Origin: Ferroglobus placidus DSM 10642
GTDB lineage: Archaea; Halobacteriota; Archaeoglobi; Archaeoglobales; Archaeoglobaceae
Length of the DNA: 32,000 nucleotides
NCBI RefSeq assembly: GCF_000025505.1
Contig: NC_013849.1
Location: 2,160,001 to 2,192,000 of the forward strand
Reading direction: 5' to 3'
Part shown: in pieces, positions 14,517 through 26,669 of the stretch
How positions within the stretch are numbered: position 1 is the stretch's first letter
Layout of the letters: each line of letters opens with the position of its first letter
The notes under the pieces: model-generated
The model's input: the letters and a program-made list of their open reading frames with translations, nothing else
What the model was told of the DNA's origin: nothing
Database searches by the model: none
Position numbers and translations under genes: made by a program

Positions 14517-15437
14517 GTGATAAAGGAGCAGTTTAGAGAGATAAATAGGAAGTTCGTGGAGAAATACGAAAAAATAGACGATTCGAAAGAGTTCTACGAG
14601 TTCATGGCTAAGCCAATAAGACAGAGCTTCAGAGTTAACACGCTTAAAATAGATGTTAAAAGCGTTGTGGAAAGATTATCGGAAGAGTTCGAACTCGAAA
14701 GAGTCCCTTGGTGTAAAGAGGGGTTTTTCGTTTACGGAGAGGGAATAACCAAAACTCCTGAATTCGCTCTCGGCTTGATATTCATGCAGGAAGCTTCCTC
14801 GATGATACCGCCGGTTGTTATGGATTTGAAGGAGAACCTCTTCGTTCTCGACATGGCAGCCGCTCCTGGAGCGAAAACGACGCAGATTTCGCAATACATG
14901 AACAACACCGGCTGCGTTATTGCCAATGATGTGAAGTACTCGAGGTTGAACATTCTCATTTCTAACGTTCAGAAGTACGGATGCATAAACGTTGTTGTGA
15001 CGGAAAAGGACGGAAGATACTTTGGAAGGTTCAGAGACACCTTCGATAGAGTTTTACTTGATGCTCCCTGCAGCAACGTGGGGATGATAAGGAAGAACTA
15101 CAAATATTTAAAGCTCTGGAGGCAGATGGAAGTGGAAGCTTTGTCGAGGCTGCAAAAAAGTCTGATTTTGGCAGCTTACAAAGCTTTGAAGCCGAAAGGT
15201 GTTCTTGTTTACTCCACTTGCACTCTCGATCCCGAAGAAAATGAAGAAGTAATCGACTACCTTCTCTACAATACCGACGCGAAGCTCGAAAAAATAAAGC
15301 TTCCAGTAAAGTCTACAGAGCCGATATTGGAGTTCAACGGGAAAAGGTACAGCGAAGAAGTCAAAAAGTGCCTGAGAATTCATCCTCAAGATAACGACAC
15401 CGAAGGCTTCTTCGTCGCCAAGGTGGTGAAACCGTGA
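14517..15437 (+). CDS. NOL1/NOP2/Sun-family RNA cytosine-C5 methyltransferase
   Basis: FMQEASSMIPPVVMD, VLDMAAAPGAKTTQI, DAPCSNVGMIRKN and YSTCTLDPEENEEVI carry both catalytic Cys motifs of RsmB/Trm4-type enzymes. GTG start. Confidence 0.85.
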   Translation: MIKEQFREINRKFVEKYEKIDDSKEFYEFMAKPIRQSFRVNTLKIDVKSVVERLSEEFELERVPWCKEGFFVYGEGITKTPEFALGLIFMQEASSMIPPVVMDLKENLFVLDMAAAPGAKTTQISQYMNNTGCVIANDVKYSRLNILISNVQKYGCINVVVTEKDGRYFGRFRDTFDRVLLDAPCSNVGMIRKNYKYLKLWRQMEVEALSRLQKSLILAAYKALKPKGVLVYSTCTLDPEENEEVIDYLLYNTDAKLEKIKLPVKSTEPILEFNGKRYSEEVKKCLRIHPQDNDTEGFFVAKVVKP

Positions 15438-15832
15438 ACTATTTGGAAATTTTAAGGGAACTTTACGGAGTCGAGAAGGTGAATTTCGAGCTGAAAAAGA
15501 TGGGAAAGGACAGGCTCTACGCTTTTCTGAAGTGCGACAAGAAGGACGAGCTCGGGATAAAAGAGTACCACCAAGGAGTCTACTTCGGCAAGCTCGAAAA
15601 AGATGGGATAAGGTTGAGCATAGAGGGTTGCTATTTGCTTCGAGACGAGATTAAGAAAAACCTCATAGAAGTTTCCTACGAAGATGCGATTAAGTGGTTG
15701 AAAGGAGAAGATTTGGATATTCCTTACAAAGGATACGTCGTGCTGAAGTGGAGAAACTACTTTTTGGGTTGCGGAAAGGGGGATGGAAAGAAAATAAGGA
15801 ACTACGTCCCTAAGGAGAGGAGAATAATCTAA
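15434..15832 (+). CDS. RsmF/NSUN C-terminal PUA-like domain protein (separate ORF)
   Basis: Its GTG overlaps the upstream stop (GTGA). The sequence (GVYFGKLEKDGIRLSIEG...GYVVLKWRNYFLGCGKGDGKKIRNYVPKERR) resembles the C-terminal RNA-binding extension that is fused to these methyltransferases in other organisms. Confidence 0.5.
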   Translation: MNYLEILRELYGVEKVNFELKKMGKDRLYAFLKCDKKDELGIKEYHQGVYFGKLEKDGIRLSIEGCYLLRDEIKKNLIEVSYEDAIKWLKGEDLDIPYKGYVVLKWRNYFLGCGKGDGKKIRNYVPKERRII

Positions 15833-15868
15833 CAAAACATTATTAAATTCCAAAATCAACGCTTAAAA

Positions 15869-16381
15869 ATGGATCCGAGAGCGTTTTATAAAATAAGTTA
15901 CGGACTTTACGTCGTTTCCTCCTCCTACAATGGTAGACTGAGCGGGCAAATTGCCAATACAGTTTTTCAGGTCTCCTCAGAGCCTCCGATGATTGCAGCT
16001 TGTTTGAACAAGAAAAACTTCACCCACGAAATAGTGAAGTCGAGTAAGGTTTTCGCTGTTAGCGTTTTGGAAGCTGAAACGCCACTGACGTTCATAGGAA
16101 GGTTTGGGTTCAGAAGTAGCAGGGACTTCGACAAGTTTGAAGGAGTGGATTACGAAATAGGAGTAACTGGCGCTCCAGTCGTAATTCAGCATGCAACAGC
16201 AATTTTCGAGGCAAAGGTCGTTAAGGAGTGCGACGTTGGAACTCACACCTTGTTTATCGGTGAAGTCGTGAGGGCTGAGCTGAGAAGAGATGCCGAAGTT
16301 TTGACTTACGCCGACTACCATCGGATTAAGAAAGGAAAAACTCCGAAAACTGCTACCGTTTACTTCGATAAGCAAAGTTAG
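15869..16381 (+). CDS. flavin reductase-like FMN-binding domain protein
   Basis: YGLYVVSS...GQIANTVFQVSSEPPMIAACLNKKNFTHEIV...FAVSVL...GTHTLFIGEVV is a typical Flavin_Reduct domain. Confidence 0.75.
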   Translation: MDPRAFYKISYGLYVVSSSYNGRLSGQIANTVFQVSSEPPMIAACLNKKNFTHEIVKSSKVFAVSVLEAETPLTFIGRFGFRSSRDFDKFEGVDYEIGVTGAPVVIQHATAIFEAKVVKECDVGTHTLFIGEVVRAELRRDAEVLTYADYHRIKKGKTPKTATVYFDKQS

Positions 16382-16413
16382 TTGCTAAATTGCAAAAAAT
16401 GCAACATTGATGC

Positions 16414-16420
16414 TTTTTTT
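16414..16420 (+). terminator. oligo-T tract downstream of the flavin reductase gene
   Basis: A T7 run lies about 33 nt after the stop codon. Archaeal termination commonly uses oligo-T. Confidence 0.3.
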
Positions 16421-16435
16421 ATCACTCACTTTTTG
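16421..16435. repeat. left copy of 15-bp inverted repeat ATCACTCACTTTTTG
   Basis: This is the exact reverse complement of 17016-17030. Confidence 0.9.
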
Positions 16436-16638
16436 GGCTTTCGAACAATTTTAAATTTTGGAGATAATAATAAAAAATTAAAATTTAAACTTTTTAAATT
16501 ATATCTTCTAACTCTTATGTTTTCCATTTTTAAATCTTTTATAAAAATTAAAATGACAAAAATTGAATTGATAATTTAAATTAATTAAATATTAATGAGC
16601 TATGTAATCTGTAGCCTTATCACAAAATTTTTAGAATA

Positions 16639-16668
16639 CAACATTTTTAGGTTTACCTAAAAATGTTG
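16639..16668. repeat. perfect palindrome, 13-bp arms with a 4-nt spacer (CAACATTTTTAGG ttta CCTAAAAATGTTG)
   Basis: Read directly from the sequence. A further CAACATT copy lies at 16402-16408. Confidence 0.9.
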
Positions 16669-17015
16669 AATGTGGCGACTCGCTTGTTCCAAAAATTATG
16701 TGAATTTAGGCTGCGTCGCGAATTTACCCCCCCTTAACTGCATGAAGTGTGCAAATTTGTGAAACAACGCTATTTAACGGTGTTAAATATTACAATAATT
16801 TTGGAATAAAGATTATTTAGCCTCAGCAATATATATTTGCTTCAAAATTAACTGCTCAAGAAATTATTGATTTGTGAGTAGATATTTGAATATACAAAAT
16901 TAAAAACTAAAATTAATTAAAATAAATTTTGAAAATTAATATATTACATTAAATAAATAATTTTAATTAAATTACTTAGATACAACAGAACAAATGTAAA
17001 TTAACCTCCAAGTTT

Positions 17016-17030
17016 CAAAAAGTGAGTGAT
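17016..17030. repeat. right copy of 15-bp inverted repeat (CAAAAAGTGAGTGAT)
   Basis: This is the exact reverse complement of 16421-16435; the two copies span 610 bp. Confidence 0.9.
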
Positions 17031-17092
17031 GAAGAAGAGAGAAGATTTTGGGGAAAACGTATAAGAGTGAGTAAAGCAGATGTTCGGATGTT

Positions 17093-18211
17093 ATGAAAAT
17101 TTCGAAAAGCGCGTATCGGAAGAGAGTTGAAAAAGTCCAAGAGCTTATGGAAAAGGAAGGGATAGACGCTTTCCTCGTGCTTTCCCTCGAAAATTACAGG
17201 TATTTCACTGGAGATGTGAGAAAGCAACCGAGGATGGTAATTCCGTCTAACGACGAGCCTTTTTTAATAGTTTTCGACACCGAAAAAGAGGAAGCTGAGA
17301 AAAAGACCGGTCTCGAGGCAAAAACCTATAGATCCCTCCCGGATATGATGAAGCACATCGTAGCATTCACAAACTCCCTTGGGGACAACCCGAAGATAGC
17401 TGTTGAGATGGAGTTTTCAACGCCAGCTTTTCTCCTTGAGAGGTTCAGAAAAATGAATCCTCACGTGGAAGTTGTAGATGCGAAGCAGATAGTTGCTCCG
17501 CTGAGAAAATACAAAGACGAGTACGAGTTAGAACTCATGAAAAAAGCTGGAAAACTTGCGGATGTGGCAATGGAAAAAGTCTTGGACGTTTTGAAGCCGG
17601 GAGTTGCAGAGAGAGAAGTTGCCAACGAAGTGGAGTACTACATCAGAAAGAAGGGAGCTGAAAGGCTCGCTTTTCCTATGTTCGTTAATTCCGGAGAAAG
17701 GAGTCTCTGGCTTCACGGTTTAGCTACAGACAGAAAAATTGAGGAGGGAGATGTGGTTTTAATAGATGTAGGTCCGGTTTACGAGGGATACTGCGCTGAC
17801 ATAGCGAGAACTTTCGTTGTAGGTAAAGCTACCGAAGAGCAAAAAAGAGCTCATTCAGCTTACGTGGAATTACAGGAGAGAGTCGTGGAAATTATCGAAA
17901 AAGAAAAGAACGAAATATCGATTCTTGAGATAGAGAGAAGAAACGAGGAGTTCATGAAAAGCAAGGGCTTTGGAAACTTTTACGTAAAAGGATTTCTCCA
18001 CGGGATCGGACTGAATTTCGAAGAGACTCCGTTTCCAACGATATTTCCCGAAGATTTGAGGGAGGTTGTCGAGGAAAGAATGACTTTGTCAGTTGGACAT
18101 TCTGTTCTCTCAATCAAAGGCGTTGGGGGATTTAGAGTTGAGGATACCATTTACGTTGGAGAAAAAATCGAGTTCCTTACGACTTTCACCAGAGAACTTC
18201 TGGAGGTGTGA
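17093..18211 (+). CDS. M24-family Xaa-Pro aminopeptidase/dipeptidase
   Basis: Creatinase-like N-terminal domain followed by a pita-bread domain: VVLIDVGPVYEGYCADIARTF, HGIGLNFEE, VEDTIYV (metal ligands D, D, H, E, E). Confidence 0.8.
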   Translation: MKISKSAYRKRVEKVQELMEKEGIDAFLVLSLENYRYFTGDVRKQPRMVIPSNDEPFLIVFDTEKEEAEKKTGLEAKTYRSLPDMMKHIVAFTNSLGDNPKIAVEMEFSTPAFLLERFRKMNPHVEVVDAKQIVAPLRKYKDEYELELMKKAGKLADVAMEKVLDVLKPGVAEREVANEVEYYIRKKGAERLAFPMFVNSGERSLWLHGLATDRKIEEGDVVLIDVGPVYEGYCADIARTFVVGKATEEQKRAHSAYVELQERVVEIIEKEKNEISILEIERRNEEFMKSKGFGNFYVKGFLHGIGLNFEETPFPTIFPEDLREVVEERMTLSVGHSVLSIKGVGGFRVEDTIYVGEKIEFLTTFTRELLEV

Positions 18212-18214
18212 TTT

Positions 18215-18625
18215 ATGGCTGAAGCTAAAGGAGAAATTGTCGTTTCCGCAGACGTTGAGAGAGTTAGGAAAGTCCTTTTAGACATGAAAACGGTTGGTAG
18301 TTGCTTTAAGTTCGTTAAGAATGCTTCTGAAAAAGGAGAAAAGTGGTTTGTCAGAGCTCCTATGTCGATGATAACGCAAACAAAGGAGTTAGAAGTGAAA
18401 GTTATCAGAGAAGAGCCAGTTGAATGGGAAGCAAAGGGAAAACATCTGTTATGGAAGGGAAGATTTGAGGTAGAAGAGGCAAACGGGGGAACGAGGATAA
18501 AGGTTACGCTCTCCGTTGAGGGGCTGGGAAGCATGGCAGCGATAATTAATCCGATGGCAAGCGTCCAGATAGAGGGGCAATTAAGGTACTTCCTAAACGA
18601 GTTGAAGAAGAAAATTGAGGGTTAG
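18215..18625 (+). CDS. SRPBCC (CoxG/START-like) family protein
   Basis: The 136-aa product has a beta-rich pattern and a C-terminal helix resembling CoxG-type SRPBCC proteins. The assignment is weak. Confidence 0.4.
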   Translation: MAEAKGEIVVSADVERVRKVLLDMKTVGSCFKFVKNASEKGEKWFVRAPMSMITQTKELEVKVIREEPVEWEAKGKHLLWKGRFEVEEANGGTRIKVTLSVEGLGSMAAIINPMASVQIEGQLRYFLNELKKKIEG

Positions 18626-19659
18626 CGTTTCGCTATAAGCTCTTTCACCGCCGTACAACCTCCGCAGGTGAAGCATCCCGCTTCGGCTTTATTGATTTTG
18701 ACATGCTTAACGTAACTTTCAACGAGCTCGTAAATCTTTACCACTTCATCTAAATTGACTGGCTGTTCGTTAGAATAAGGCGGAGGTCTGTAAGGAGCTA
18801 GGAAAGGAGTAATTCCTATTTCAACCATCCTTTCAACGTTTTCAGCAGTTACGAATTTATCCTCTCCGAAACCAAGCACAATCCAGCTGTTAACCTTCCA
18901 TTTCCCGAAAATATCCACGGCGTTCTCCCAAGCTTTGAAGTACTCTTCAAGCTTCGGCTTTCCTGGAACAACATTGCTTCTAATTTTTTCGTCCAGAACT
19001 TCAGCGTGAATACCTATCGTGTCTGCCCCACTTTCGTAAAGCATTTCAAGAAAATCTCTATCGACGACGTCGACCTGAACGTGAATTGGTATGTCCACTT
19101 TTTCCTTTACAGCCTTAACAACTTCAGAGATTTTTACAGCCCCTTTGTCTTTCCCCGGCATAATTCCGGAAGTTATTGTGAGGTGTCTGCTGTTATCCTC
19201 TTCGTAAGCCATTTTCGCAGCCTCGGCTATCATTTCTGGAGTTTTTTCCACGATCGAGTTTTCCAGCCCAATCTCTATAGAGCAGAATTTGCATCTCTTC
19301 TTTTTCCACAGAACGCATCTTCTCGACACAGCAGTTACGAGAGCGTTAATTCCGTCGAGAGCAACTATTTTCCCGGCTTCAACGCCAAAACTCGTCGGCT
19401 TCGAATAATACTCAGCCTTAGGTAGCTTAACCTCGCCAACGACTTCGTCGTTCTTGAAAAGGTAATATTTCTCGTCGATTTTCTCAATTCTGTAAGGGGA
19501 GTTTTCAACGAACTTTTGCTTGTTCGGAGCAGAAACCACGCTACCTTCTACCTCAAACCCAACTCCTCCAGTTGGACCTCCTCCACTCTTTCTGTAGCTT
19601 CTAACGTTTCCTCTAACTCCTTTCACTATTATTTCGAGTTTCGTTCTCCAGTCAAGCAT
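18622..19659 (-). CDS. radical-SAM-like TIM-barrel protein with non-canonical C-x7-C-x2-C motif
   Basis: SRRCVLWKKKRCKFCS carries a Cys triad with x7/x2 spacing. LTITSG and IVLGFGEDKFVTAENVERMVEIGI resemble BioB/ThiH-type motifs. The C-terminus has GCFTCGGC (C-x2-C-x2-C). The N-terminal domain of about 110 aa, with GGGPTGG, is unassigned. Confidence 0.5.
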   Translation of the reverse strand: MLDWRTKLEIIVKGVRGNVRSYRKSGGGPTGGVGFEVEGSVVSAPNKQKFVENSPYRIEKIDEKYYLFKNDEVVGEVKLPKAEYYSKPTSFGVEAGKIVALDGINALVTAVSRRCVLWKKKRCKFCSIEIGLENSIVEKTPEMIAEAAKMAYEEDNSRHLTITSGIMPGKDKGAVKISEVVKAVKEKVDIPIHVQVDVVDRDFLEMLYESGADTIGIHAEVLDEKIRSNVVPGKPKLEEYFKAWENAVDIFGKWKVNSWIVLGFGEDKFVTAENVERMVEIGITPFLAPYRPPPYSNEQPVNLDEVVKIYELVESYVKHVKINKAEAGCFTCGGCTAVKELIAKR

Positions 19660-20593
19660 AAACCCTCACAGCCTCATCCGGAGAGTCGCTGTAAGCCACA
19701 GCTGCCAGAGCACCTATTACACCTCTCCTCCCGGTAATTTCTATCAACTCAACCCCGTTTCTCTCCGCAACATTTTCAGCCTCCTCGATTTCCACCATCT
19801 CCCTCTTTACCTTCTCCCCGAATTTTAACAGCTCTTCGTCGATCAAAATTTTTTTGTAAACCGCCATAGCCGTTTCGTCGCTGAAAGTGCTCTTTCTAAG
19901 CTCTTTTTCAAACGCTTTCACGAGCTTTTCCGAATCTTGCGTTGCGAAAGTTACTGAAATGGATACGCAGTTCGTAGTTTTGTATGGATTTTTCGTGTAC
20001 AGCTGAGTGATCGTGTGAAGGAGGTAGTATCCAAGTCCTTCTTTTTCAAGTTTGTAGGCGATTTCGTTAACGAGTGCCCAAGTTGCCCCTCCTTCCTTGC
20101 TGTCCGTATCATCGACGCCTATCACAACCTTCTCCATTGCCGGAAGAACGAGTTTAGCCTTTCCAAGTTTCTCTCCTCCTCCCTCTTCGAGAATTTCAAT
20201 TCCCAACACGTTTTCAGCCATGCCCCTGCAAACTGTCGCAGCTATGCCTCCTCCGGCAAGACCGGCGTAAGTTACCTCGACTTTATCACCAACAACTTCG
20301 ACTTTTTCAACACCAGCTCCGGCAATCCCCGGCACGAGCCTCAAAGTCGTTTCTCCCTTTTTCAAAACGAAAATGTTCCTCGCTCCTTCTCTCCTCGCTT
20401 TTAGAACGAGGTTGCTCACTCTCGGGTAGTGGTAAATCTCCCAAGCAGCTCCGCCTATGCATTTTCCTCTCGCATGAAACTCGTGGAGCTCAACGTGAAA
20501 GCCGTCGTGCATGGCGATAATTCTCTCGTAAGGAGAAATCCACTCAACACCACCATATTTTTTTAATACCTCCTCTCTACTCATCAAAACCAT
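19652..20593 (-). CDS. stand-alone TiaS kinase-domain (TCKD)-like protein with novel N-terminal domain
   Basis: The C-terminal region of about 165 aa has VIGVDDTDSKEGGATWAL, NPYKTTN and GRRGVIGALAAVAY. These parallel the TiaS N-terminal domain motifs (IDDTDSSRGMCTTYL, NPTIPYKTRGNG, GRGLIGALAAVG, from memory). There are no OB or Zn-ribbon domains. Its stop overlaps the start of the next gene by 8 nt. Confidence 0.55.
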   Translation of the reverse strand: MVLMSREEVLKKYGGVEWISPYERIIAMHDGFHVELHEFHARGKCIGGAAWEIYHYPRVSNLVLKARREGARNIFVLKKGETTLRLVPGIAGAGVEKVEVVGDKVEVTYAGLAGGGIAATVCRGMAENVLGIEILEEGGGEKLGKAKLVLPAMEKVVIGVDDTDSKEGGATWALVNEIAYKLEKEGLGYYLLHTITQLYTKNPYKTTNCVSISVTFATQDSEKLVKAFEKELRKSTFSDETAMAVYKKILIDEELLKFGEKVKREMVEIEEAENVAERNGVELIEITGRRGVIGALAAVAYSDSPDEAVRVYA

Positions 20594-20626
20594 AAGTTGT
20601 GAAAATTCGAGAACGATTATAAATGT

Positions 20627-21595
20627 TTGGAGGTGCTGAACGTGGAGGCAATACTCGACATAGAGGGAGAAAAGAGCGAGGAGAGAGAATTTGACGTAGC
20701 AATAATCGGAGCTGGACCAGCAGGACTGACCGCTGCAATATATGCTACAAGGTACGGTCTGAAGACGGTTGTCTTCGAAACTGTGGAAGCTTCTCAGCTT
20801 TCGTTAGCTCCGAAAATAGAGAATTACCCGGGATTTGAAGGATCCGGATTTGAATTGCTTGAAAGAATCAAAAGGCAGGCTTTAAAGTTTGGAGCCGTGC
20901 ACAAGTTCGAGCACGTGGAGAGGCTTAGAAAAGACGGTGACTACTTCGTCGTAAAAACCGACATGGCTGAGTATAAAGCGAAAGCTTTGATAATTGCTAC
21001 CGGAGGAAAGCACAAAGAACTCGGAGTTCCTGGAGAAAAAGAATTCGTCGGGAAGGGTGTTAGCTACTGCGCCACTTGCGACGGAAACTTCTTTAGAGGG
21101 AAAAGAGTTGCCGTCGTCGGTGGAGGAAATACGGCTGTGACCGATGCGATTTACCTCCACGAAATTGGTTGCGATGTCGTTTTGATCCACAGAAGAGACG
21201 AGTTGAGGGCTGAAAAAGCTTTACAAGAGGAACTTTTCAAAAGGAACATCCCAGTAATATGGGACACGGTCGTTCTCAGAATAGAGGGTAACGAGAAGGT
21301 CGAAAGGCTCGTCCTCCTCAACAGAAAAACGAATGAAGAGAGCGTTTTAGAAGTGGACGGAGTTTTCATAGCAGTAGGAATCGTGCCAGCGACAGATATA
21401 GTCATGGATCTCGGAGTAGAAAGGGATGCTGCCGGTTACATCAAAGTTGACAAAAGGCAGAGAACAAACGTTCCCGGTGTTTTTGCCGCTGGCGACTGTT
21501 GCGACAATCCTCTAAAACAAGTTGTCACAGCATGTGCCGACGGAGCTATAGCGGCGAACTCGGCTTTTGAGTACATCAAAATGATGCAACTTTAA
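20627..21595 (+). CDS. trxB: thioredoxin-disulfide reductase
   Basis: FDVAIIGAGPAGLTAAIYA, the redox-active CATCDG, VAVVGGGNTAV and GVFAAGDC. The exact start is uncertain (TTG 20627 or downstream GTG codons). Confidence 0.85.
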   Translation: MEVLNVEAILDIEGEKSEEREFDVAIIGAGPAGLTAAIYATRYGLKTVVFETVEASQLSLAPKIENYPGFEGSGFELLERIKRQALKFGAVHKFEHVERLRKDGDYFVVKTDMAEYKAKALIIATGGKHKELGVPGEKEFVGKGVSYCATCDGNFFRGKRVAVVGGGNTAVTDAIYLHEIGCDVVLIHRRDELRAEKALQEELFKRNIPVIWDTVVLRIEGNEKVERLVLLNRKTNEESVLEVDGVFIAVGIVPATDIVMDLGVERDAAGYIKVDKRQRTNVPGVFAAGDCCDNPLKQVVTACADGAIAANSAFEYIKMMQL

Positions 21596-21645: not shown

Positions 21646-21705
21646 GCCGCTGTGATGATTACTCCCGCTGCTGACACGTGATGATTATTGCGCTATCTGA
21701 GCGGC
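21646..21705 (+). ncRNA. C/D box sRNA (2'-O-methylation guide)
   Basis: GCCGC-u-GUGAUGA(C)-UUACUCCCGCUG-CUGA(D')-cac-GUGAUGA(C')-UUAUUGCGCUAU-CUGA(D)-GCGGC. Both guides are exactly 12 nt, the D'-C' linker is 3 nt and the terminal stem is 5 bp. A TATA-like AAAAAGTTAAATGG lies about 25-30 nt upstream. Confidence 0.85.
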
Positions 21706-21887
21706 TACCATTCTATGCTTATCGCGTTGTTCGGACAGGCTCTCGTGCACGCGCCGCACTCCATGCAGAGGTCTTCGTTTACCTTAGCCACACCGCCGTC
21801 GAGATATATGGCTCCTCCCTTCTCGCTGCAAACTTCCACGCAGGCTCCGCATCCATCGCACTTTGAAGCGTCAATTACGGCAGGCAT
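21705..21887 (-). CDS. 2x[4Fe-4S] ferredoxin
   Basis: The 60-aa product has CDGCGACVEVC and CMECGACTRACP cluster motifs. Confidence 0.9.
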   Translation of the reverse strand: MPAVIDASKCDGCGACVEVCSEKGGAIYLDGGVAKVNEDLCMECGACTRACPNNAISIEW

Positions 21888-21992
21888 AATAAAAGCTTAC
21901 ACAACTTGAAATTAAAATTCGAGGGCTTTTTCGGTTTTTACTCAAACGCTCACACCCGATAACCTTTAAATCTTATCTCACGAATATCCTCT

Positions 21993-22049
21993 GTCGATGA
22001 TGACGAGCGCGGGTGCTGAAAAGTGATGAAGAGCTGACGGTCTGAGACG
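21993..22049 (+). ncRNA. C/D box sRNA (2'-O-methylation guide)
   Basis: gucg-AUGAUGA(C)-CGAGCGCGGGUG-CUGA(D')-aaa-GUGAUGA(C')-AGAGCUGACGGU-CUGA(D)-gacg. It has 12-nt guides and a 3-nt linker. TATA-like CTTTAAATC (21964-21972) lies about 25 nt upstream. The terminal stem is short (GUC/GAC). Confidence 0.8.
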
Positions 22050-22095
22050 TTACAATAAAAAATTCCCTGAGTGAAAAACTAAAAAAGAGTTAAAA

Positions 22096-23289
22096 TCATG
22101 GTCTGTAGCTTTTCGGCATTCCGAGAACGTGCTCTCCTATGTAGGCGAGCGCCATCTGCTGCGTTACGGGAGCGAGCCTTATCAGGTTTATCTCTCTCCA
22201 CCACCTTTCGACATCGTATTCTTTAGTGTATCCGTAGCCTCCGAAGGTTTGCATAGCCCAGTAAACAGCTCTAATTCCTGCCTCTACTGCCACAACCTTA
22301 GCCATGTTGGCAGCGTCACCAACTTCTCTGTAAGAAGCGTTGTTGTCGAACAGCCAAGCAGCTTTCAGGTTCATCAGTTTTGCACACTCCAGCGTGGCGT
22401 AAGCCTCAGCCAAGGGGAACTGCAATCCCTGGTAGCTTCCGATCGGATCCTGAAAGACCTTCCTCTGCTTGGAATACTCCACAGCCTTGCTAACAGCCAA
22501 TCTCGCTATGCCTATTGCCGCAGCTGCGAAACTCATCCTCTCAGGATTCAGCGTGTCGAGAATTAGGTACCACCCCTCGTCTTGCGGAGGAATTAAAGCA
22601 TTTTCCGGCAATCTCAAATTATTGAAGCTGACTTCACAGGTTTTTGAATAGTTTATTCCGTGTTTTGGTATGGGGTTTATCTTTACCGCTGGATTTGGCA
22701 AGTCAGCTAAGAACAAACTTATTCCGTAAGTTCTCTTCGGAGCCTCCTCTCTTGGAGTCGTTCTTGCGATTATAAGCATTCCCTTCGCCCTGTCAGCTCC
22801 GCTTATGAATATCTTGTTGCCGTTTATCACCCACTCGTCTCCGTCTTTAACTGCCCTCGTCCTTATGTTGAGGGTGTTCGTTCCAGCGTCGGGCTCAGTC
22901 AGAGCCATGCAGAACTCAAGCTTGCCTTTAGCGATCTTCGGAAGGTACTTTTCCTTTTGCTCTTCAGTTCCGTGCCTCACAATCGTCAAAGCCCCAAAGA
23001 CCTCGGTAAGAACGAGATACCACACTCCCCCCATTCCGCAGCCGTTGGCGGCTAACTCCTCCATCGCTATAAGCAGTTCTGTCATTCCGTACCCGGAGCC
23101 CCCGTACTCTTCGGGGATTACTATTCCTACGAAACCGGCATCGCTTATAGCCTTCCAGAACTCCTCGGCAAACTCTCCCTTCTCGTCCTTTTCCCTCCAG
23201 TATTCGGGAGGAAAATCTTTAGCGATATCTCTTGCAGCCTCTGCTATCATCTTCTGATCTTCCGTCAGTTTAAAGTCCAAATCAATCAC
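22096..23289 (-). CDS. acyl-CoA dehydrogenase
   Basis: FKLTEDQKMIAEAARDIAKDF..., ALTEPDAGTN, FISGA and GGYGYTKEYDVERWWRE (catalytic Glu region). The track ORF runs to 23397, but GGAGGTG followed by the GTG at 23289 gives a normal product of about 397 aa. Confidence 0.85.
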   Translation of the reverse strand: MIDLDFKLTEDQKMIAEAARDIAKDFPPEYWREKDEKGEFAEEFWKAISDAGFVGIVIPEEYGGSGYGMTELLIAMEELAANGCGMGGVWYLVLTEVFGALTIVRHGTEEQKEKYLPKIAKGKLEFCMALTEPDAGTNTLNIRTRAVKDGDEWVINGNKIFISGADRAKGMLIIARTTPREEAPKRTYGISLFLADLPNPAVKINPIPKHGINYSKTCEVSFNNLRLPENALIPPQDEGWYLILDTLNPERMSFAAAAIGIARLAVSKAVEYSKQRKVFQDPIGSYQGLQFPLAEAYATLECAKLMNLKAAWLFDNNASYREVGDAANMAKVVAVEAGIRAVYWAMQTFGGYGYTKEYDVERWWREINLIRLAPVTQQMALAYIGEHVLGMPKSYRP

Positions 23290-23306
23290 CTCCAAAAAAT
23301 AGAAAA

Positions 23307-23777
23307 TTAGGCTGGTTTGAAGTAAAGAATGTCCGTAATCTTTCCTTCTCTCTCTTCCTTCGGCTTTAGAACCGGTTTGACTTTCATTCCAACGCAAACG
23401 TCTTCGGGATTCACTTCTCCGAGCAGGTGAATTATTCTTCCGTTTGTTCCGTCCATCTCTATGAGAGCGTAGATTTCCGGTTTTTCGAGCTTCTCTCCGT
23501 TTTTATCGTAGTACGCCACAGCAAAAGCCGCAACGCATCCCTCTCCGCTCACTTCCACGTATTCCGTCTCGCTAAAGTCGAACTCGCAGTAGATCCTCGG
23601 AGGGAAGAATACGTGCCCGCATTTTTTACATTTGGCGGCTGTAAACTTCCCCTCATCCCTCAGCTTTTTGAAAAAGTAATCTCCAGCTTCTCCGCTCGTG
23701 TAAACCCAGTAAAGCTCTATCTTACCTTCCACGTGCTTCAGCTCTCGAGGATCGATAATTTTTTCGGTAAAAACCAT
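23307..23777 (-). CDS. DUF35 (Zn-ribbon + OB-fold, acyl-CoA-associated) protein, ribbon with only three Cys
   Basis: KCKKCGHVFFPPRIYCEFDFSETEYVEVSG is followed by an OB-fold tail (IYALIEMDG...VGMKVKPVLKP). The fourth ribbon Cys is replaced (CEFD). Confidence 0.75.
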   Translation of the reverse strand: MVFTEKIIDPRELKHVEGKIELYWVYTSGEAGDYFFKKLRDEGKFTAAKCKKCGHVFFPPRIYCEFDFSETEYVEVSGEGCVAAFAVAYYDKNGEKLEKPEIYALIEMDGTNGRIIHLLGEVNPEDVCVGMKVKPVLKPKEEREGKITDILYFKPA

Positions 23778-23782
23778 TCACA

Positions 23783-24319
23783 TCACCCCTCTATCGGCTT
23801 CCAGTACTTTATATCCGTTATCGCTCCCTCCCTCTCCTCTTCGGGCTTCCAGACCGCCTTTACTTTCATTCCGATGTAAACCTTGTCCGGCTCGACCTCG
23901 CCGAGTTTATGTAGAATTCCCATGTGTGGAGAGGCTCCGTCTATAGCTATAACTGCCACAATTTCCGGCTCTTCTAAAGGTCTCGCGTCTGGATCGATGT
24001 AGGAGATCGAGAAGGTCTCAACAACTCCGGTGTCTTTAAGCTCGACCCACTCGTTTATAGGTTTGAAACAAAGCTCGCAGAATTCCCTTGGAGGAACCAT
24101 AACCCTTCCGCACTTGTTGCACTTTACTCCGAGAATCTTTCCCTCCTTCAACCCCTTGAGGAACTTGCTGATAGCCTGTCCGGCTGTAAAGGAATAGCGA
24201 ATGTCAGGGTGATCTTCCACGTACGTTATCGTCTTCTTCTCGAAATCCTCCGCTTCGAGCTCTCTCCCCTTAACGTAAGGAGGACAGCTAATATCCTTCT
24301 TACCTACCGCCAACTCCAT
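23783..24319 (-). CDS. DUF35 (Zn-ribbon + OB-fold) protein
   Basis: KCNKCGRVMVPPREFCELCFKPINEWVELKDTG has the full CxxC...CxxC ribbon, followed by an OB-fold tail. The likely start, ATG 24319, overlaps the upstream stop (TGATG). Confidence 0.75.
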   Translation of the reverse strand: MELAVGKKDISCPPYVKGRELEAEDFEKKTITYVEDHPDIRYSFTAGQAISKFLKGLKEGKILGVKCNKCGRVMVPPREFCELCFKPINEWVELKDTGVVETFSISYIDPDARPLEEPEIVAVIAIDGASPHMGILHKLGEVEPDKVYIGMKVKAVWKPEEEREGAITDIKYWKPIEG

Positions 24320-25527
24320 CACCTCTTGTTTGATAAAACCATAACGGTTCCAACCTGCATCAAATCTCCCCAAGCCTGAGCGACTCCCGTTGTGACTTCC
24401 TTCGGAACCTGCCTCTTTCCAGCTCTGTAGGCGAGCTGCCAGTAGATTTCCGCTACTTTAACTCCCATTGTCGCAGCTATCGGGTTTCCTACTCCAAGCA
24501 GTCCTCCAGATGGGCAAACAGGAAGATCACCGTCTCTTGCCGTGACTCCCTCTCTCGTTAAGATGGGTGCCTCACCCTTCTTAGCCAAGCCTAACCCTTC
24601 CATGTGGTGCAACTCCTTGTAATCGAAGGGATCGTAGGGCTCAGCCACGTCGATTTCCTTCCTCGGATCGGTTATGTGAGCCATCTTGTAAGCCATTTTC
24701 GCAGCCTCAGCCACGTACCTCGGGAAGTAGAGGTCTCTGTTCGTCCACCACGTTGTGTCCAAACTCCAGCCAACTCCTGCCACCCAAACCGGCTCGTCCG
24801 TGAGTTGTCTCGCTATGTGGGGAGCGACCATTATCAAAGCAGACGCTCCGTCGCTCGGCGGAGAAACGTCGAGTCTTCTCACCGGCAAAGCCATCGGCTC
24901 GCTGTTGAGTACGTCTTCAACGGTTATCTTGGCTGCAAGCTGTGCAGCCGGATGGTCTAAAGCGTTTGCCTTGTTCTTTACGGAAACGAGAGCTATATCT
25001 TCATGCTTTATGTTGTGGACGTGCATGTACCTCCTCATTTCCAGAGCGAATATCCAGATGAGGTTCGGTTTTAGCGGACGATCGAGAATTGGATCCCAGA
25101 TGTACTTGAAAGCCGACTGCGGATGCGGATGGGAAGAGCTCATCTTCTCTTCGGTAACAACCAAGCAAACGTCGGCAAGACCGCTTGCAACGTGCCAGTA
25201 GCCGGCGATAGGAGCGAATACTCCAGTGCCTCCTCCTACGAAAACTCTCATGTATGGCTTGTTGCTTCCTCCAGCTCCGTCGAGCAGGTATTCTCCCTTC
25301 ATGTGCACACCGTCAAAGGCATCTGGAGCTGAACCCATTACAACCATGTCTATGTCGCTGATGTCCAAGCCAGCTTCTTCCAAAGCCTGCTTTACAGCAT
25401 AGTAACTAAGCTCTTTTCCAGTCTCGTTAAGCCTCCTTCTGAATATCGTCATTCCCGCTCCAACTATCGCGACATCCTGCTTTTTGTGGTACTTCAAACC
25501 CTTAACCTTCTCAACTATCATGACCAT
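24319..25527 (-). CDS. thiolase-fold (SCP-x/Ltp-type) protein lacking the canonical catalytic Cys/His by eye
   Basis: VAIVGAGMTIF start, ...RVFVGGGTGVFAPIAGYWHVASGLADVCLVVTEEKMS (Gly where the nucleophilic Cys is expected), and CPSGGLLGVGNPIAATMG (Asn in place of the GHP His). Its ATG 25527 overlaps the upstream stop. Confidence 0.7.
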   Translation of the reverse strand: MVMIVEKVKGLKYHKKQDVAIVGAGMTIFRRRLNETGKELSYYAVKQALEEAGLDISDIDMVVMGSAPDAFDGVHMKGEYLLDGAGGSNKPYMRVFVGGGTGVFAPIAGYWHVASGLADVCLVVTEEKMSSSHPHPQSAFKYIWDPILDRPLKPNLIWIFALEMRRYMHVHNIKHEDIALVSVKNKANALDHPAAQLAAKITVEDVLNSEPMALPVRRLDVSPPSDGASALIMVAPHIARQLTDEPVWVAGVGWSLDTTWWTNRDLYFPRYVAEAAKMAYKMAHITDPRKEIDVAEPYDPFDYKELHHMEGLGLAKKGEAPILTREGVTARDGDLPVCPSGGLLGVGNPIAATMGVKVAEIYWQLAYRAGKRQVPKEVTTGVAQAWGDLMQVGTVMVLSNKR

Positions 25528-26669
25528 CACCTCGAAAATACAGCCACAGCTCCGGTAGCGGTAGGAATGTATCTCCAAGACATAGCCACGCCAACCTCAG
25601 CGTCAACCTGCCTTCTTCCAGCTTCCCCTCTCAGCTGCAAAACGACCTCCAAAGCTTTTTGCCCGCCGGTAGCTTCAAGGAGATTTCCAACGCTGAGATT
25701 TCCTCCAGAAACGTTCACCGGCAATTCTCCTTTTCTGTCGAAGTAACCGCTCTTCATCAATTCCTCCACTTCTCCCTTCTTAGCCAAACCGAGAGCTTCG
25801 ATGTGCTGAACTTCTTTGTAGGCAAACCTGTCGTCAACCTCTGCAAGCTGAATTTCTTTATCCGGCTTAGTTATTCCAGCCATCTTGTAAGCCATTTCGG
25901 CAGCCTTCTTTGCATAAGCCGCTTCAAAGCTCATCGTGTCGTAATTGCTTGTTTCGCTCCACCAGCCAATTCCGTTAATCCATATCGGATCGTCTCTAAG
26001 CTCCTTAGCAACCTGCTCGTTAGCCAAAACGAAAACAATAGCTCCGTCGCTCCTCTCAGCAATTTCGAGCTTTCTCAACGGATAGAAGGCTGCTTCGCTG
26101 CTCAAAACATCTTCGACGCTTACATTAGCTGAGTACGGAGCGTCTTTGTTCAGCCTTCCGTGCTTCTTGTTCTTTACAACAACTTCAGCGAAAAGCTCGT
26201 CGCTGTAGCCTCTTCTGCTCATGTAGTATGATTTTTCGAGGGCGGCGAAGTAGTAAGGATGAGCCTTTCCGATCGGTCTCAGCCATATCGGGTCGAACGC
26301 AAACTTAATGACTTCTCCGAAAGTCACTATGTCGCTCGCTTTGCTGTGAGCTTCTACAACAGCTATCTCAGCCAGTCCGCTCTTTATTATCATGTACGCG
26401 TTGGCGATTCCGTGGAGAAAATCGGCAGTCACGGTGAACGTTGGCTTCAGCACCGCACCAAGCTGATCTGGCACGAACTCGTCGAAAATTGCGAAGCCCT
26501 CCCAGAAGTCTTCCGCGCACGTGACGAAGCTGTCGACGTCCTTTCTTGGATTTATCCCTGCATCTTCGTAAGCTCTGACTGCAGCTTCGTACATTATCTC
26601 TTTCCAGCTTAAATCCGGCGTATTTGCGTTAAAACCGGAGTAGCCAACGCCTACGACAGCTACTCTCAT
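25527..26669 (-). CDS. thiolase-fold (SCP-x/Ltp-type) protein lacking the canonical catalytic Cys/His by eye
   Basis: MRVAVVGVGYSGF..., TFTVTADFLHGIANAYMIIKSGLAEIAVVEAHSKAS (no Cys at the nucleophile site), and NVSGGNLSVGNLLEATG (no His). Confidence 0.7.
   Translation of the reverse strand: MRVAVVGVGYSGFNANTPDLSWKEIMYEAAVRAYEDAGINPRKDVDSFVTCAEDFWEGFAIFDEFVPDQLGAVLKPTFTVTADFLHGIANAYMIIKSGLAEIAVVEAHSKASDIVTFGEVIKFAFDPIWLRPIGKAHPYYFAALEKSYYMSRRGYSDELFAEVVVKNKKHGRLNKDAPYSANVSVEDVLSSEAAFYPLRKLEIAERSDGAIVFVLANEQVAKELRDDPIWINGIGWWSETSNYDTMSFEAAYAKKAAEMAYKMAGITKPDKEIQLAEVDDRFAYKEVQHIEALGLAKKGEVEELMKSGYFDRKGELPVNVSGGNLSVGNLLEATGGQKALEVVLQLRGEAGRRQVDAEVGVAMSWRYIPTATGAVAVFSR

Follow-up and report, generated by a model that had tools for sequence, protein, structure and literature searches.

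This report concerns a pair of adjacent genes in the archaeon Ferroglobus placidus DSM 10642, carried on a 32,000-nucleotide stretch of its genome (RefSeq assembly GCF_000025505.1, contig NC_013849.1, positions 2,160,001 to 2,192,000 of the forward strand); the whole of this stretch is called the window, and coordinates are counted from its first letter. Both genes are on the minus strand. The upstream one encodes methanogenesis marker protein 11 (Mmp11, also m17 or DUF1743) and the downstream one a variant radical S-adenosylmethionine (SAM) enzyme, and both products belong to families that are named but uncharacterised. A preliminary description, made from the sequence alone, had singled out the pair for its overlapping reading frames, for a likeness of the first product to the kinase domain of the tRNA enzyme TiaS, and for the unusual cysteine spacing of the second, and had suggested a modification pathway, so far uncharacterised, for a nucleoside, an RNA or a cofactor. 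The finding holds and its structural inferences are correct: the two open reading frames (ORFs) overlap as described, and the quoted motifs are all present, VIGVDDTDSKEGGATWAL, NPYKTTN and GRRGVIGALAAVAY in Mmp11 and CVLWKKKRCKFC, LTITSG, VLGFGED and CFTCGGC in its partner. In the overlap, ATGCTTGA, one frame reads GTT TAT GCT TGA and the other ATG CTT GAC. An overlap of identical length, 8 nucleotides, is kept in 18 related loci and also in a contig of another lineage (L172), indicating that translation of the two genes is probably coupled. The features are collected in the Table.

Table. Features of the Mmp11-radical SAM gene pair and of the gap upstream of it; positions are those of the window.
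Feature	Position	Strand	Basis and remarks
Mmp11 gene (methanogenesis marker protein 11; m17, DUF1743), 313 aa	19652..20593	-	ORF list; full-length TIGR03280 match; AlphaFold2 model
Variant radical SAM gene, Mmp11-associated, 345 aa	18622..19659	-	PF04055, NF045502, Foldseek
Overlap ATGCTTGA, 8 nt: Mmp11 stop codon and radical SAM start codon	19652..19659	-	Sequence
Mmp11 N-terminal domain, residues 1-152, Gly-rich (HARxxCxGGAAWE, TYAGLAGGG, GGG)	20138..20593	-	Invariant columns
Mmp11 C-terminal TCKD + FLD, residues 155-313, TiaS-type kinase domain	19655..20131	-	Pfam, PDB sequences, Foldseek
DDTD motif, D161-D164, aligned with TiaS D8-D11	20102..20113	-	HMMER alignment; invariant in 63 sequences
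Thr171 codon, at the position of autophosphorylated TiaS Thr18	20081..20083	-	Register D161 = D8 gives T171 = T18; invariant
Radical SAM N-terminal domain, residues ~1-110, R-x-GG(A/G)GP-x-G motif, family-specific	19330..19659	-	Invariant K7, G14, R23, G26, G28, G32
CX7CX2C (C115, C123, C126), predicted [4Fe-4S] site with expanded first loop	19282..19317	-	Cysteines invariant, as is F125
C-terminal CX2CX2C (C329, C332, C335)	18655..18675	-	Invariant in all aligned family members, distant ones included
Divergent intergenic gap, 33 bp, with TTTATAA at 20617-20623, ~27 nt 5' of the Mmp11 ATG	20594..20626	.	Sequence reading only

The Mmp11 of the window matches TIGR03280 over its full length (E 2.9e-109, 364.7 bits against a cutoff of 255.8), with residues 21-311 aligned to profile positions 1-292. 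It is a full member of the family listed elsewhere as TIGR03280 or m17 (Borrel 2019; Adam 2022), yet it resides in Ferroglobus, so the family is not restricted to methanogens. The 333 homologues are 48-93% identical, the closest (93%) being from Ferroglobus sp., with Geoglobus also among the nearest; beyond the methanogens the family takes in Ferroglobus and Geoglobus, Bathyarchaeia and Actinomycetota. The Joint Genome Institute calls Mmp11 an 'imperfect marker'. The family is compact: among 1.84 billion representative proteins its profile matched 80 at E<=1e-30, and TiaS appeared only at about 1e-13.

The resemblance between the C-terminal half of Mmp11 and the kinase domain of TiaS, first proposed by eye, is far beyond chance. 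Pfam assigns this half to TiaS_TCKD (PF22641, E 5.9e-23, 82 bits against a cutoff of 27) and TiaS_FLD (PF08489, 7.7e-07), and phmmer aligns residues 155-301 with the TiaS chains in the Protein Data Bank (PDB) at E 2e-6 to 3e-9. An AlphaFold2 model built from 63 homologues, with a predicted local distance difference test score (pLDDT) of 95.2, matches TiaS structures 4rvz, 3amt and 3amu in Foldseek at E ~1e-9 over ~155 columns, with a root-mean-square deviation (rmsd) of 1.8-2.5 Å; the TCKD+FLD fold is thus common to TiaS and the C-terminal ~155 residues of Mmp11, at 22-28% identity and an rmsd of ~2 Å. The similarity as such is already on record, in Pfam and UniProt names and in Adam et al. 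2022. Residues D161, D162 and D164 correspond to TiaS D8, D9 and D11 and are invariant across the 63 homologues, as is T171, which does align with Thr18 of TiaS; PYKT and GxxGxIGALA are likewise invariant in the family, and TiaS has the same set of motifs (DDTD, Thr18-equivalent, PYKT, GRGxIGALAA). We take TiaS D8-D11 to be the metal/ATP site. The TCKD of TiaS spends ATP on two phosphorylations, one of a carbonyl oxygen and one of a threonine hydroxyl. With all of these residues in place Mmp11 looks catalytically intact, and ATP-dependent phosphorylation of an oxygen is likely to be the chemistry that it shares with TiaS.

Mmp11 is not, however, a TiaS. On the TiaS equivalog model NF040849 it scores 55.9 bits against a cutoff of 600, with only profile positions 2-152 of 422 matched, and it is a stand-alone TCKD protein that has neither the OB fold nor the zinc ribbon of TiaS, as had been noted at the outset. 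In their place is an unrelated N-terminal domain of about 150 residues, which is at least as well conserved as the kinase half and carries the motifs HARxxCxGGAAWE, RREGARN, TYAGLAGGG and GGG. This Gly-rich domain keeps its lack of assignment: Pfam gave nothing at E<=10, its profile found only noise among PDB sequences (E>=0.5), Foldseek against the PDB gave weak ferredoxin-like matches only (E>5e-3) and nothing significant outside the TiaS half, and hhalign comparisons with HcyBio and with DUF7714 were negative. Neither an RNA-binding domain in Mmp11 nor a conserved link to translation genes in its loci was seen. Because its genomic context is metabolic, as set out below, the substrate of Mmp11 is probably a small molecule and not tRNA. 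Some Mmp11-family proteins of 319-332 residues in metagenome-assembled genome (MAG) records (P0319, P0325, P0491, P0502; one record is labelled 'Syntrophus sp.') carry the name 'tRNA(Ile2) 2-agmatinylcytidine synthetase', which is probably over-annotation from the common TCKD.

The second protein of the pair is a genuine radical SAM enzyme of the LipA/HydE/BioB kind. It matches Radical_SAM (PF04055, E 2.2e-11, 44.6 bits against a cutoff of 29.5) and passes the variant_rSAM model NF045502 (145.4 bits against 125). Its AlphaFold2 model (pLDDT 93.7) finds lipoyl synthase LipA first in Foldseek (5exj, 1.4e-10), then HydE and PylB at about 1e-9 and BioB at 8.7e-08, with ThiH next alongside BioB. 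The core motifs TxTSG and GFGE (TxTxG and GxGE in the family) are present, as is an aromatic residue before the last cysteine of the triad. The spacing of that triad is indeed unusual: the first loop has 5-8 residues in window-type members, 7 of them here, and the canonical 3 in Methanomicrobiales members. The N-terminal domain, which has no Pfam match, is kept in the Methanomicrobiales and ANME-1 versions of the protein. LipA, BioB and HydE handle sulfur with the aid of auxiliary clusters, and by analogy with them the C-terminal CX2CX2C is a probable auxiliary Fe-S cluster site. Judged by its Cys triad, TxTxG, GxGE and C-terminal cysteines, this enzyme too looks catalytically intact.

How close is the radical SAM protein to enzymes of known function? 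LipA/LipS2, HydE, BioB and PylB are both its best structural matches and its best matches to hidden Markov models of other families, yet the identities are only 14-18%, and every equivalog cutoff is missed by a wide margin (for the lipoyl synthase models, LipS2, 38.8 bits against 270; lipA, 23.5 against 310). A second Cys cluster site is a property that the window protein has in common with LipA, BioB and HydE; the N-terminal CX4CX5C and RSSY motif of LipA are missing from it, its auxiliary cysteines being those at the C-terminus, and it differs from all of the LipA, HydE, BioB and PylB enzymes in having an extra N-terminal domain and the CX7CX2C triad. The nearest named family is MSMEG_0568/TIGR04043, the NitD of bacterial Nit1C clusters, to which the window protein is a distant relative (231.3 bits, under the cutoff of 303.7), and it is by this name that NCBI labels the archaeal relatives. 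The layout is the same in both, with an RxGGAGP N-terminal domain, an expanded Cys loop and a C-terminal AGCxRCGxCS. The company kept is different: MSMEG_0568 clusters pair their radical SAM protein with a GNAT protein, an sll0787 AIR-synthase-like protein, a nitrilase and an ABC transporter, whereas the partner in the window is Mmp11, and no Nit1C-type gene (GNAT, sll0787 AIR-synthase-like or nitrilase) was found in the window or in 43 Mmp11-linked loci.

The pairing of the two genes is widely conserved. A profile scan for Mmp11, taking one genome per species, returned 80 loci, and a radical SAM gene was found in 43 of them (37 of the 62 with at least 1.2 kb of flank on both sides). In all but one of the 43 it lies on the same strand as Mmp11 and directly adjacent to it, downstream in 37 loci and upstream in 5. 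As to whether adjacency holds across Archaeoglobi and methanogens, a question raised with the preliminary description, the genes are kept as neighbours in very distant lineages: Archaeoglobi, Methanodesulfokora (Korarchaeia), Methylarchaceae, Bathyarchaeota, Mnemosynellales, Methanocellales, Methanomicrobia-type MAGs and Actinomycetota, with further contigs of other lineages (L168, L172). No fusion of the two proteins was seen among the best 150 of 571 representative matches. In Methanodesulfokora (L019) a divergent Mmp11 lies beside Mmp4, and the same genome has a separate, Archaeoglobi-like Mmp11-radical SAM pair, so that the pair seems to travel as a unit. The Actinomycetota MAGs (Geothermincolia, Anoxymicrobiaceae and Acidimicrobiales-labelled; L028, L030, L032, L037, L038, L041, L045, L048-L050, L059, L061) carry the pair on contigs that also hold bacterial sigma-factor and DnaK genes, and a neighbour-joining tree places their Mmp11 proteins in a single clade beside a Methanomicrobia/NM3-type clade, which suggests transfer of the pair from archaea to bacteria.

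What do the neighbouring genes in methanogens say about function? ORF clustering of the 80 Mmp11 loci, together with annotation, gave two recurrent contexts. In the first (type A) the order is Mmp4/MtxX, Mmp11, radical SAM gene. The fold of Mmp4 is phosphotransacetylase-like, and a 2026 structure paper (PMC12978539) still describes its function as unknown. The second (type B) is found in Methanomethylicia, Methanofastidiosa and some Thermoplasmata. In Methanomethylicia it is a one-strand operon of genes for an AksA/LeuA-like protein, Mmp4, HacA-like and HacB-like proteins, a divergent IlvB-like thiamine pyrophosphate (TPP) enzyme, Mmp11 and a GMC-type FAD/Fe-S oxidoreductase, with no radical SAM gene adjacent; in Methanofastidiosa Mmp11 occurs with AksA-like, TPP-enzyme and oxidoreductase genes, and in Thermoplasmata the AksA-like gene alone is kept next to it. 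Mmp11 adjoins the FAD/Fe-S oxidoreductase gene only where the radical SAM gene does not adjoin. In Methanothrix, Mmp11 is followed by an IorA-like TPP enzyme.

The two contexts are merged in two Methanomicrobiales contigs, one Methanofollis-type (L166, 5022-12605) and one Methanogenium-type (L170, 7001-14960). Each has a tight same-strand operon encoding a TCKD paralog, Mmp11, the radical SAM enzyme, an IorA-like TPP enzyme, AksA-like, HacA-like and HacB-like proteins, DUF7714 and an AksF-like protein, and directly upstream are HdrABC/FlpD genes, with Ftr upstream as well. In architecture the radical SAM protein of these operons agrees with that of the window: it has the GPGAGG domain at its N-terminus, the core motifs, and the CX2CX2C at its C-terminus. 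DUF7714 matches XcbA, a family named from a bacterial coenzyme M cluster, at a score below threshold. We regard this operon as a candidate for a complete coenzyme B operon. In a Syntrophus-labelled MAG (L171, 3036-4869) a 327-residue TCKD protein is followed by a PTA_PTB-like (Mmp4-like) protein and then by a sigma-54 activator, so the pairing of Mmp11 with Mmp4 extends outside the archaea.

A further clue comes from the longer members of the Mmp11 family. About 10 full-length representatives are 372-405 residues in length, and of the seven such proteins scanned six have an N-terminal winged helix of the TrmB/MarR type; the subfamily built in this way has members of 372-391 residues (P0398, P0439, P0328, P0343, P0351, P0360, P0404). 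These winged helix-turn-helix (HTH) fusions are found in Methanomicrobiales. The Methanocorpusculum example, annotated 'sugar-specific transcriptional regulator TrmB' (L162/L163, 8001-9176), shares 14 nt with the homoserine dehydrogenase gene upstream of it and has an aspartate-semialdehyde dehydrogenase gene nearby. A winged helix fused to a cofactor enzyme, as in BirA, NadR, archaeal RbkR and ThiR, is typical of metabolite pathways; by analogy the HTH-Mmp11 fusion fits a small-molecule role, and it would tie Mmp11 to the threonine/aspartate-semialdehyde node.

The radical SAM family also has a life apart from Mmp11. In ANME-1 and related contigs a gene for HcyBio+CBS, the MJ0100-type sulfur-incorporating homocysteine enzyme (PF01837, 1e-146), lies directly upstream of the radical SAM gene in 9 metagenome loci (L095, L099, L101, L102, L105, L110, L112, L115, L150), and in ANME-1-THS (GCA_004212135.1; L161, 6487-9062) it runs 19 nt past the radical SAM start. 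In the loci examined, HcyBio was never a neighbour of Mmp11. In bacterial-type loci (L125, L126, L134-L149, L155, L156, L160) the radical SAM gene often carries a fused GNAT, in some cases of the MSMEG_0567 type, and next comes an sll0787-type AIR-synthase-like protein of the PurM superfamily, with sulfonate-type (SsuA-type) ABC transporter genes and often an aldehyde dehydrogenase gene nearby. On the 'methanogenesis marker 2' (Mmp2) model the AIR-synthase-like protein reaches 303 bits as well, so that two 'methanogenesis marker' families are tied to the Nit1C-type cluster. The radical SAM scaffold thus pairs repeatedly either with an ATP-using, oxygen-activating enzyme, of the TCKD or the PurM type, or with an aldehyde-to-thiol enzyme. 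Since the bacterial relatives pair with a PurM-type protein, the logic of a radical SAM enzyme beside an ATP-dependent oxygen-activating enzyme recurs outside the archaeal pair.

Which pathway would account for these associations? We put the chance at roughly one half that the pair is a conserved two-enzyme thiol-cofactor module that acts in late biosynthesis of coenzyme B (7-mercaptoheptanoyl-threonine phosphate) or of a close derivative. The pair is a candidate for late coenzyme B steps because its methanogen orthologues lie in an operon for the coenzyme B precursor. The Aks enzymes (AksA, AksD/HacA, AksE/HacB, AksF) make 2-oxosuberate; the pair has no homology to them, and its reactions would come after theirs. 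From the work of R. H. White, 2-oxosuberate is reportedly decarboxylated to 7-oxoheptanoate, which then receives a thiol, is coupled to threonine in an ATP-dependent reaction and is finally phosphorylated, again at the expense of ATP. Coenzyme B is needed by every methyl- or alkyl-coenzyme M reductase, and no genes are assigned to the reactions that finish it (2-oxosuberate decarboxylation, formation of the thiol, coupling to threonine and phosphorylation); likewise unassigned is ComF, which carries out the equivalent thiol-forming step of coenzyme M; an 'estimated 2 unknown proteins' for coenzyme B remained to be found at the time of that survey (Kaster 2011, PMC3087415). In the open-access literature that we searched there is no functional study of Mmp11/TIGR03280, of TCKD/DUF1743 or of MSMEG_0568, so that neither family has an assigned function there; the Nit1C papers give no function for the radical SAM gene, no later work on coenzyme B biosynthesis turned up (an assignment published elsewhere is possible), and, as far as the search went, the coupling of Mmp11 to a radical SAM gene and its placement in aks-type operons are unreported.

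In the mechanism that we envisage, the TiaS-type kinase domain of Mmp11 would use ATP to phosphorylate an oxygen of the substrate, be it that of a carbonyl, a carboxyl or the threonine hydroxyl, and this oxygen could afterwards either give way to a nucleophile or stay on as a phosphate ester. Where TiaS has its tRNA-binding domains, Mmp11 would rely on its conserved N-terminal domain to hold the small molecule. The radical SAM enzyme would perform a radical C-H or C-S step, most plausibly the introduction or processing of the thiol, and both the overlap with HcyBio+CBS in ANME-1 and the structural likeness to LipA and HydE, by analogy, link it to thiol formation. The late steps could all be covered by members of the operon, that is the TPP enzyme, the radical SAM enzyme, the two TCKD proteins and DUF7714, joined in other lineages by Mmp4. 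Decarboxylation would fall to the TPP enzyme, and the TCKD proteins with the phosphotransacetylase-like Mmp4 would see to carboxyl or hydroxyl activation, amide formation and phosphorylation. Alternatively, Mmp11 and the radical SAM enzyme might act jointly, Mmp11 activating the aldehyde oxygen for substitution by sulfur, which would explain why exactly these two proteins form the conserved core.

Several observations weigh against a role in coenzyme B synthesis. The functional assignment is wholly one of guilt by association. The Aks-type co-location holds for the orthologues in the two Methanomicrobiales operons and for Mmp11 in three other lineages, but not for the Archaeoglobi: the pair is alone in the window, where there is no aks, TPP-enzyme, Mmp4, DUF7714 or HcyBio gene, and aks, TPP, Mmp4 and DUF7714 genes are likewise absent near the pair in 20 related Archaeoglobi loci. 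The radical SAM enzyme of Methanomicrobiales and that of the window are no more than 21-23% identical, and in a profile scan with the radical SAM protein Mmp11 adjoined the gene in only about 6 of the best 80 metagenome loci. [quoted passage not shown] Two readings suggest themselves for such lineages: the pair would supply a coenzyme B-like thiol for Hdr/Tfr-type enzymes, or it would carry out a self-contained reaction, for example the conversion of aspartate semialdehyde to homocysteine.

The second of these readings can be generalised. The pair might turn an aldehyde other than 7-oxoheptanoate, such as aspartate semialdehyde, into a thiol such as homocysteine, complementing or replacing HcyBio and NIL-ferredoxin. 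The translational coupling of HcyBio+CBS to the radical SAM family in ANME-1 and its place directly upstream in nine metagenome loci speak for this, as do the overlap of the Methanocorpusculum fusion gene with the homoserine dehydrogenase gene and its closeness to aspartate-semialdehyde dehydrogenase, the aldehyde dehydrogenase genes that adjoin bacterial radical SAM/AIR-synthase-like pairs, and the fact that the pair stands alone in MCR-less lineages. Mmp11, however, is not itself a neighbour of HcyBio, its strongest and most repeated context is the aks/TPP operon, and it follows the metabolisers of methane and alkanes, while methionine synthesis is found everywhere; we therefore consider a homocysteine role unlikely. 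A role in the maturation of a protein or metallocofactor (Hdr, hydrogenase, CODH/ACS), with Mmp11 as a YcaO-like activator of backbone or side-chain carbonyls, is at odds with the operon evidence, which indicates a small molecule. Here the attraction lies in the neighbours: TfuA and YcaO (Mmp1) are found downstream and convergent in 8 Archaeoglobales loci and HypC/D/E upstream in 5, HdrABC is beside the Methanomicrobiales operon, and the maturase HydE is among the top structural matches. Yet the TfuA, YcaO and Hyp neighbours belong to one closely related lineage and to the opposite strand, and there is no conserved candidate for a substrate protein, all of which makes maturation quite improbable.

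RNA or nucleoside modification was the other branch of the pathway first suggested for the pair: on this view a carbonyl of a base in tRNA or rRNA, or of a free nucleoside, would be phosphorylated by Mmp11 much as by TiaS, and its radical SAM partner would finish the modification. The TCKD is so far known only from TiaS, the winged helix of some members could bind nucleic acid, and radical SAM partners of archaeal tRNA enzymes do exist, ArcS-RaSEA being the example. Set against these points are the poor TiaS equivalog score and the want of an OB fold, zinc ribbon or other RNA-binding domain, the synteny with metabolic genes, and a distribution that follows methane and Wood-Ljungdahl-type metabolism, not translation. 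The RNA branch thus comes out as very unlikely, and it is the cofactor, or small-molecule, branch of the earlier suggestion that is favoured, on the strength of synteny with Aks-type, TPP, Hdr, Mmp4 and HcyBio genes. Might the pair have no such function at all in a lineage not known to have MCR, and be an evolutionary remnant with little or no function there, or a purely regulatory or sensory device? Adam et al. 2022 call m15-m17 'remnants' in lineages without MCR, m15 being MtxX, and found no function inferable from the context of m15, m16 and m17; the HTH fusions might also be read in this way. Against this speak identities of 48-93% across phyla, invariant catalytic residues in both proteins, preservation of the 8-nt overlap, and apparent transfers of the pair into Actinomycetota and Korarchaeia. 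These features argue for strong purifying selection on an active enzyme pair, and leave a remnant or sensor as the most far-fetched of the explanations. Supply of cobamide or L-threonine-phosphate, synthesis of methanofuran or tetrahydromethanopterin (H4MPT), and synthesis of F430 were also considered and set aside, as synteny and distribution do not fit (methyl-reducing methanogens without H4MPT keep Mmp11).

If we return to coenzyme B, the most far-reaching form of the proposal is that the pair comprises the missing late enzymes, inserting the thiol into 7-oxoheptanoate and/or coupling and phosphorylating threonine in a pathway with the TCKD paralog, Mmp4, DUF7714 and the TPP decarboxylase, and that, in addition, Ferroglobus and Geoglobus, Bathyarchaeia, Mnemosynellales and some Actinomycetota synthesise either coenzyme B itself or a closely related thiol of the 7-mercaptoheptanoyl type, for use by Hdr/Tfr-type enzymes. 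We offer this compound claim tentatively and consider it doubtful as a whole; TfrB/HdrD-like genes lie within ~8 kb of the pair in several lineages. In any event, the pair and its operon partners in Methanomicrobiales make up a short and directly testable list of candidates for the late coenzyme B steps. Were the proposal true, a core cofactor pathway of methanogenesis would be completed, heterologous expression of MCR would be helped and new targets for methane mitigation would be at hand; the rare TiaS kinase fold would have a second use, one not concerned with RNA; and 'methanogen' thiol cofactors would extend beyond methane metabolism. That lineages not known to have MCR, bacteria included, possess the pair raises the testable question of whether coenzyme B-like thiols are used outside methane metabolism.

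Some observations on the surroundings of the pair remain. In one Archaeoglobales lineage (L004-L010, L016, L017), genes for TfuA and YcaO ('methanogenesis marker 1', Mmp1) lie directly downstream of the pair and convergent with it, and in five of these (L004-L006, L008, L010) HypC, HypD and HypE genes and a gene for a Cys-rich protein of 350 residues lie upstream; in Methanodesulfokora (L019) YcaO and TfuA are downstream on the strand of the pair. An AIR-synthase-like neighbour (cluster c15) that might have been the marker m16 was ruled out as such, being HypE in Archaeoglobales and ThiL in two other lineages.

In the window itself the 3' neighbours of the pair are convergent with it, namely genes for an SRPBCC-type protein and an M24 peptidase. 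They belong to a plus-strand series at 14517-18625 that encodes an RsmB/F-type rRNA methyltransferase, a flavin reductase-like protein, the M24 (prolidase-like) peptidase and the SRPBCC/polyketide-cyclase-like protein, and the last of these genes and the radical SAM gene overlap by 4 nt at their 3' ends. On the other side, at 21705-26669 on the minus strand, is a beta-oxidation-like cluster (2x[4Fe-4S] ferredoxin, acyl-CoA dehydrogenase, a ChsH2-type zinc-ribbon/OB protein and two thiolase-like proteins) that appears unrelated to the pair. Between this cluster and Mmp11 is a gene for a thioredoxin-reductase-like Pyr_redox_2 oxidoreductase (plus strand, 20594-21595), which diverges from Mmp11 with 33 bp between the two starts. 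To judge from its TTTATAA, the gap is possibly a shared archaeal promoter, and the Mmp11 transcript may be leaderless; a scan for sigma-70 promoters and terminators is not applicable to archaeal DNA and was uninformative here. The divergent Pyr_redox_2/Mmp11 layout recurs in 13 Archaeoglobi loci (cluster c7 among L001-L024) and is also found beside an HTH-Mmp11 gene in another contig (L164/L165), and it may reflect a shared promoter or a functional tie to a disulfide reductase.

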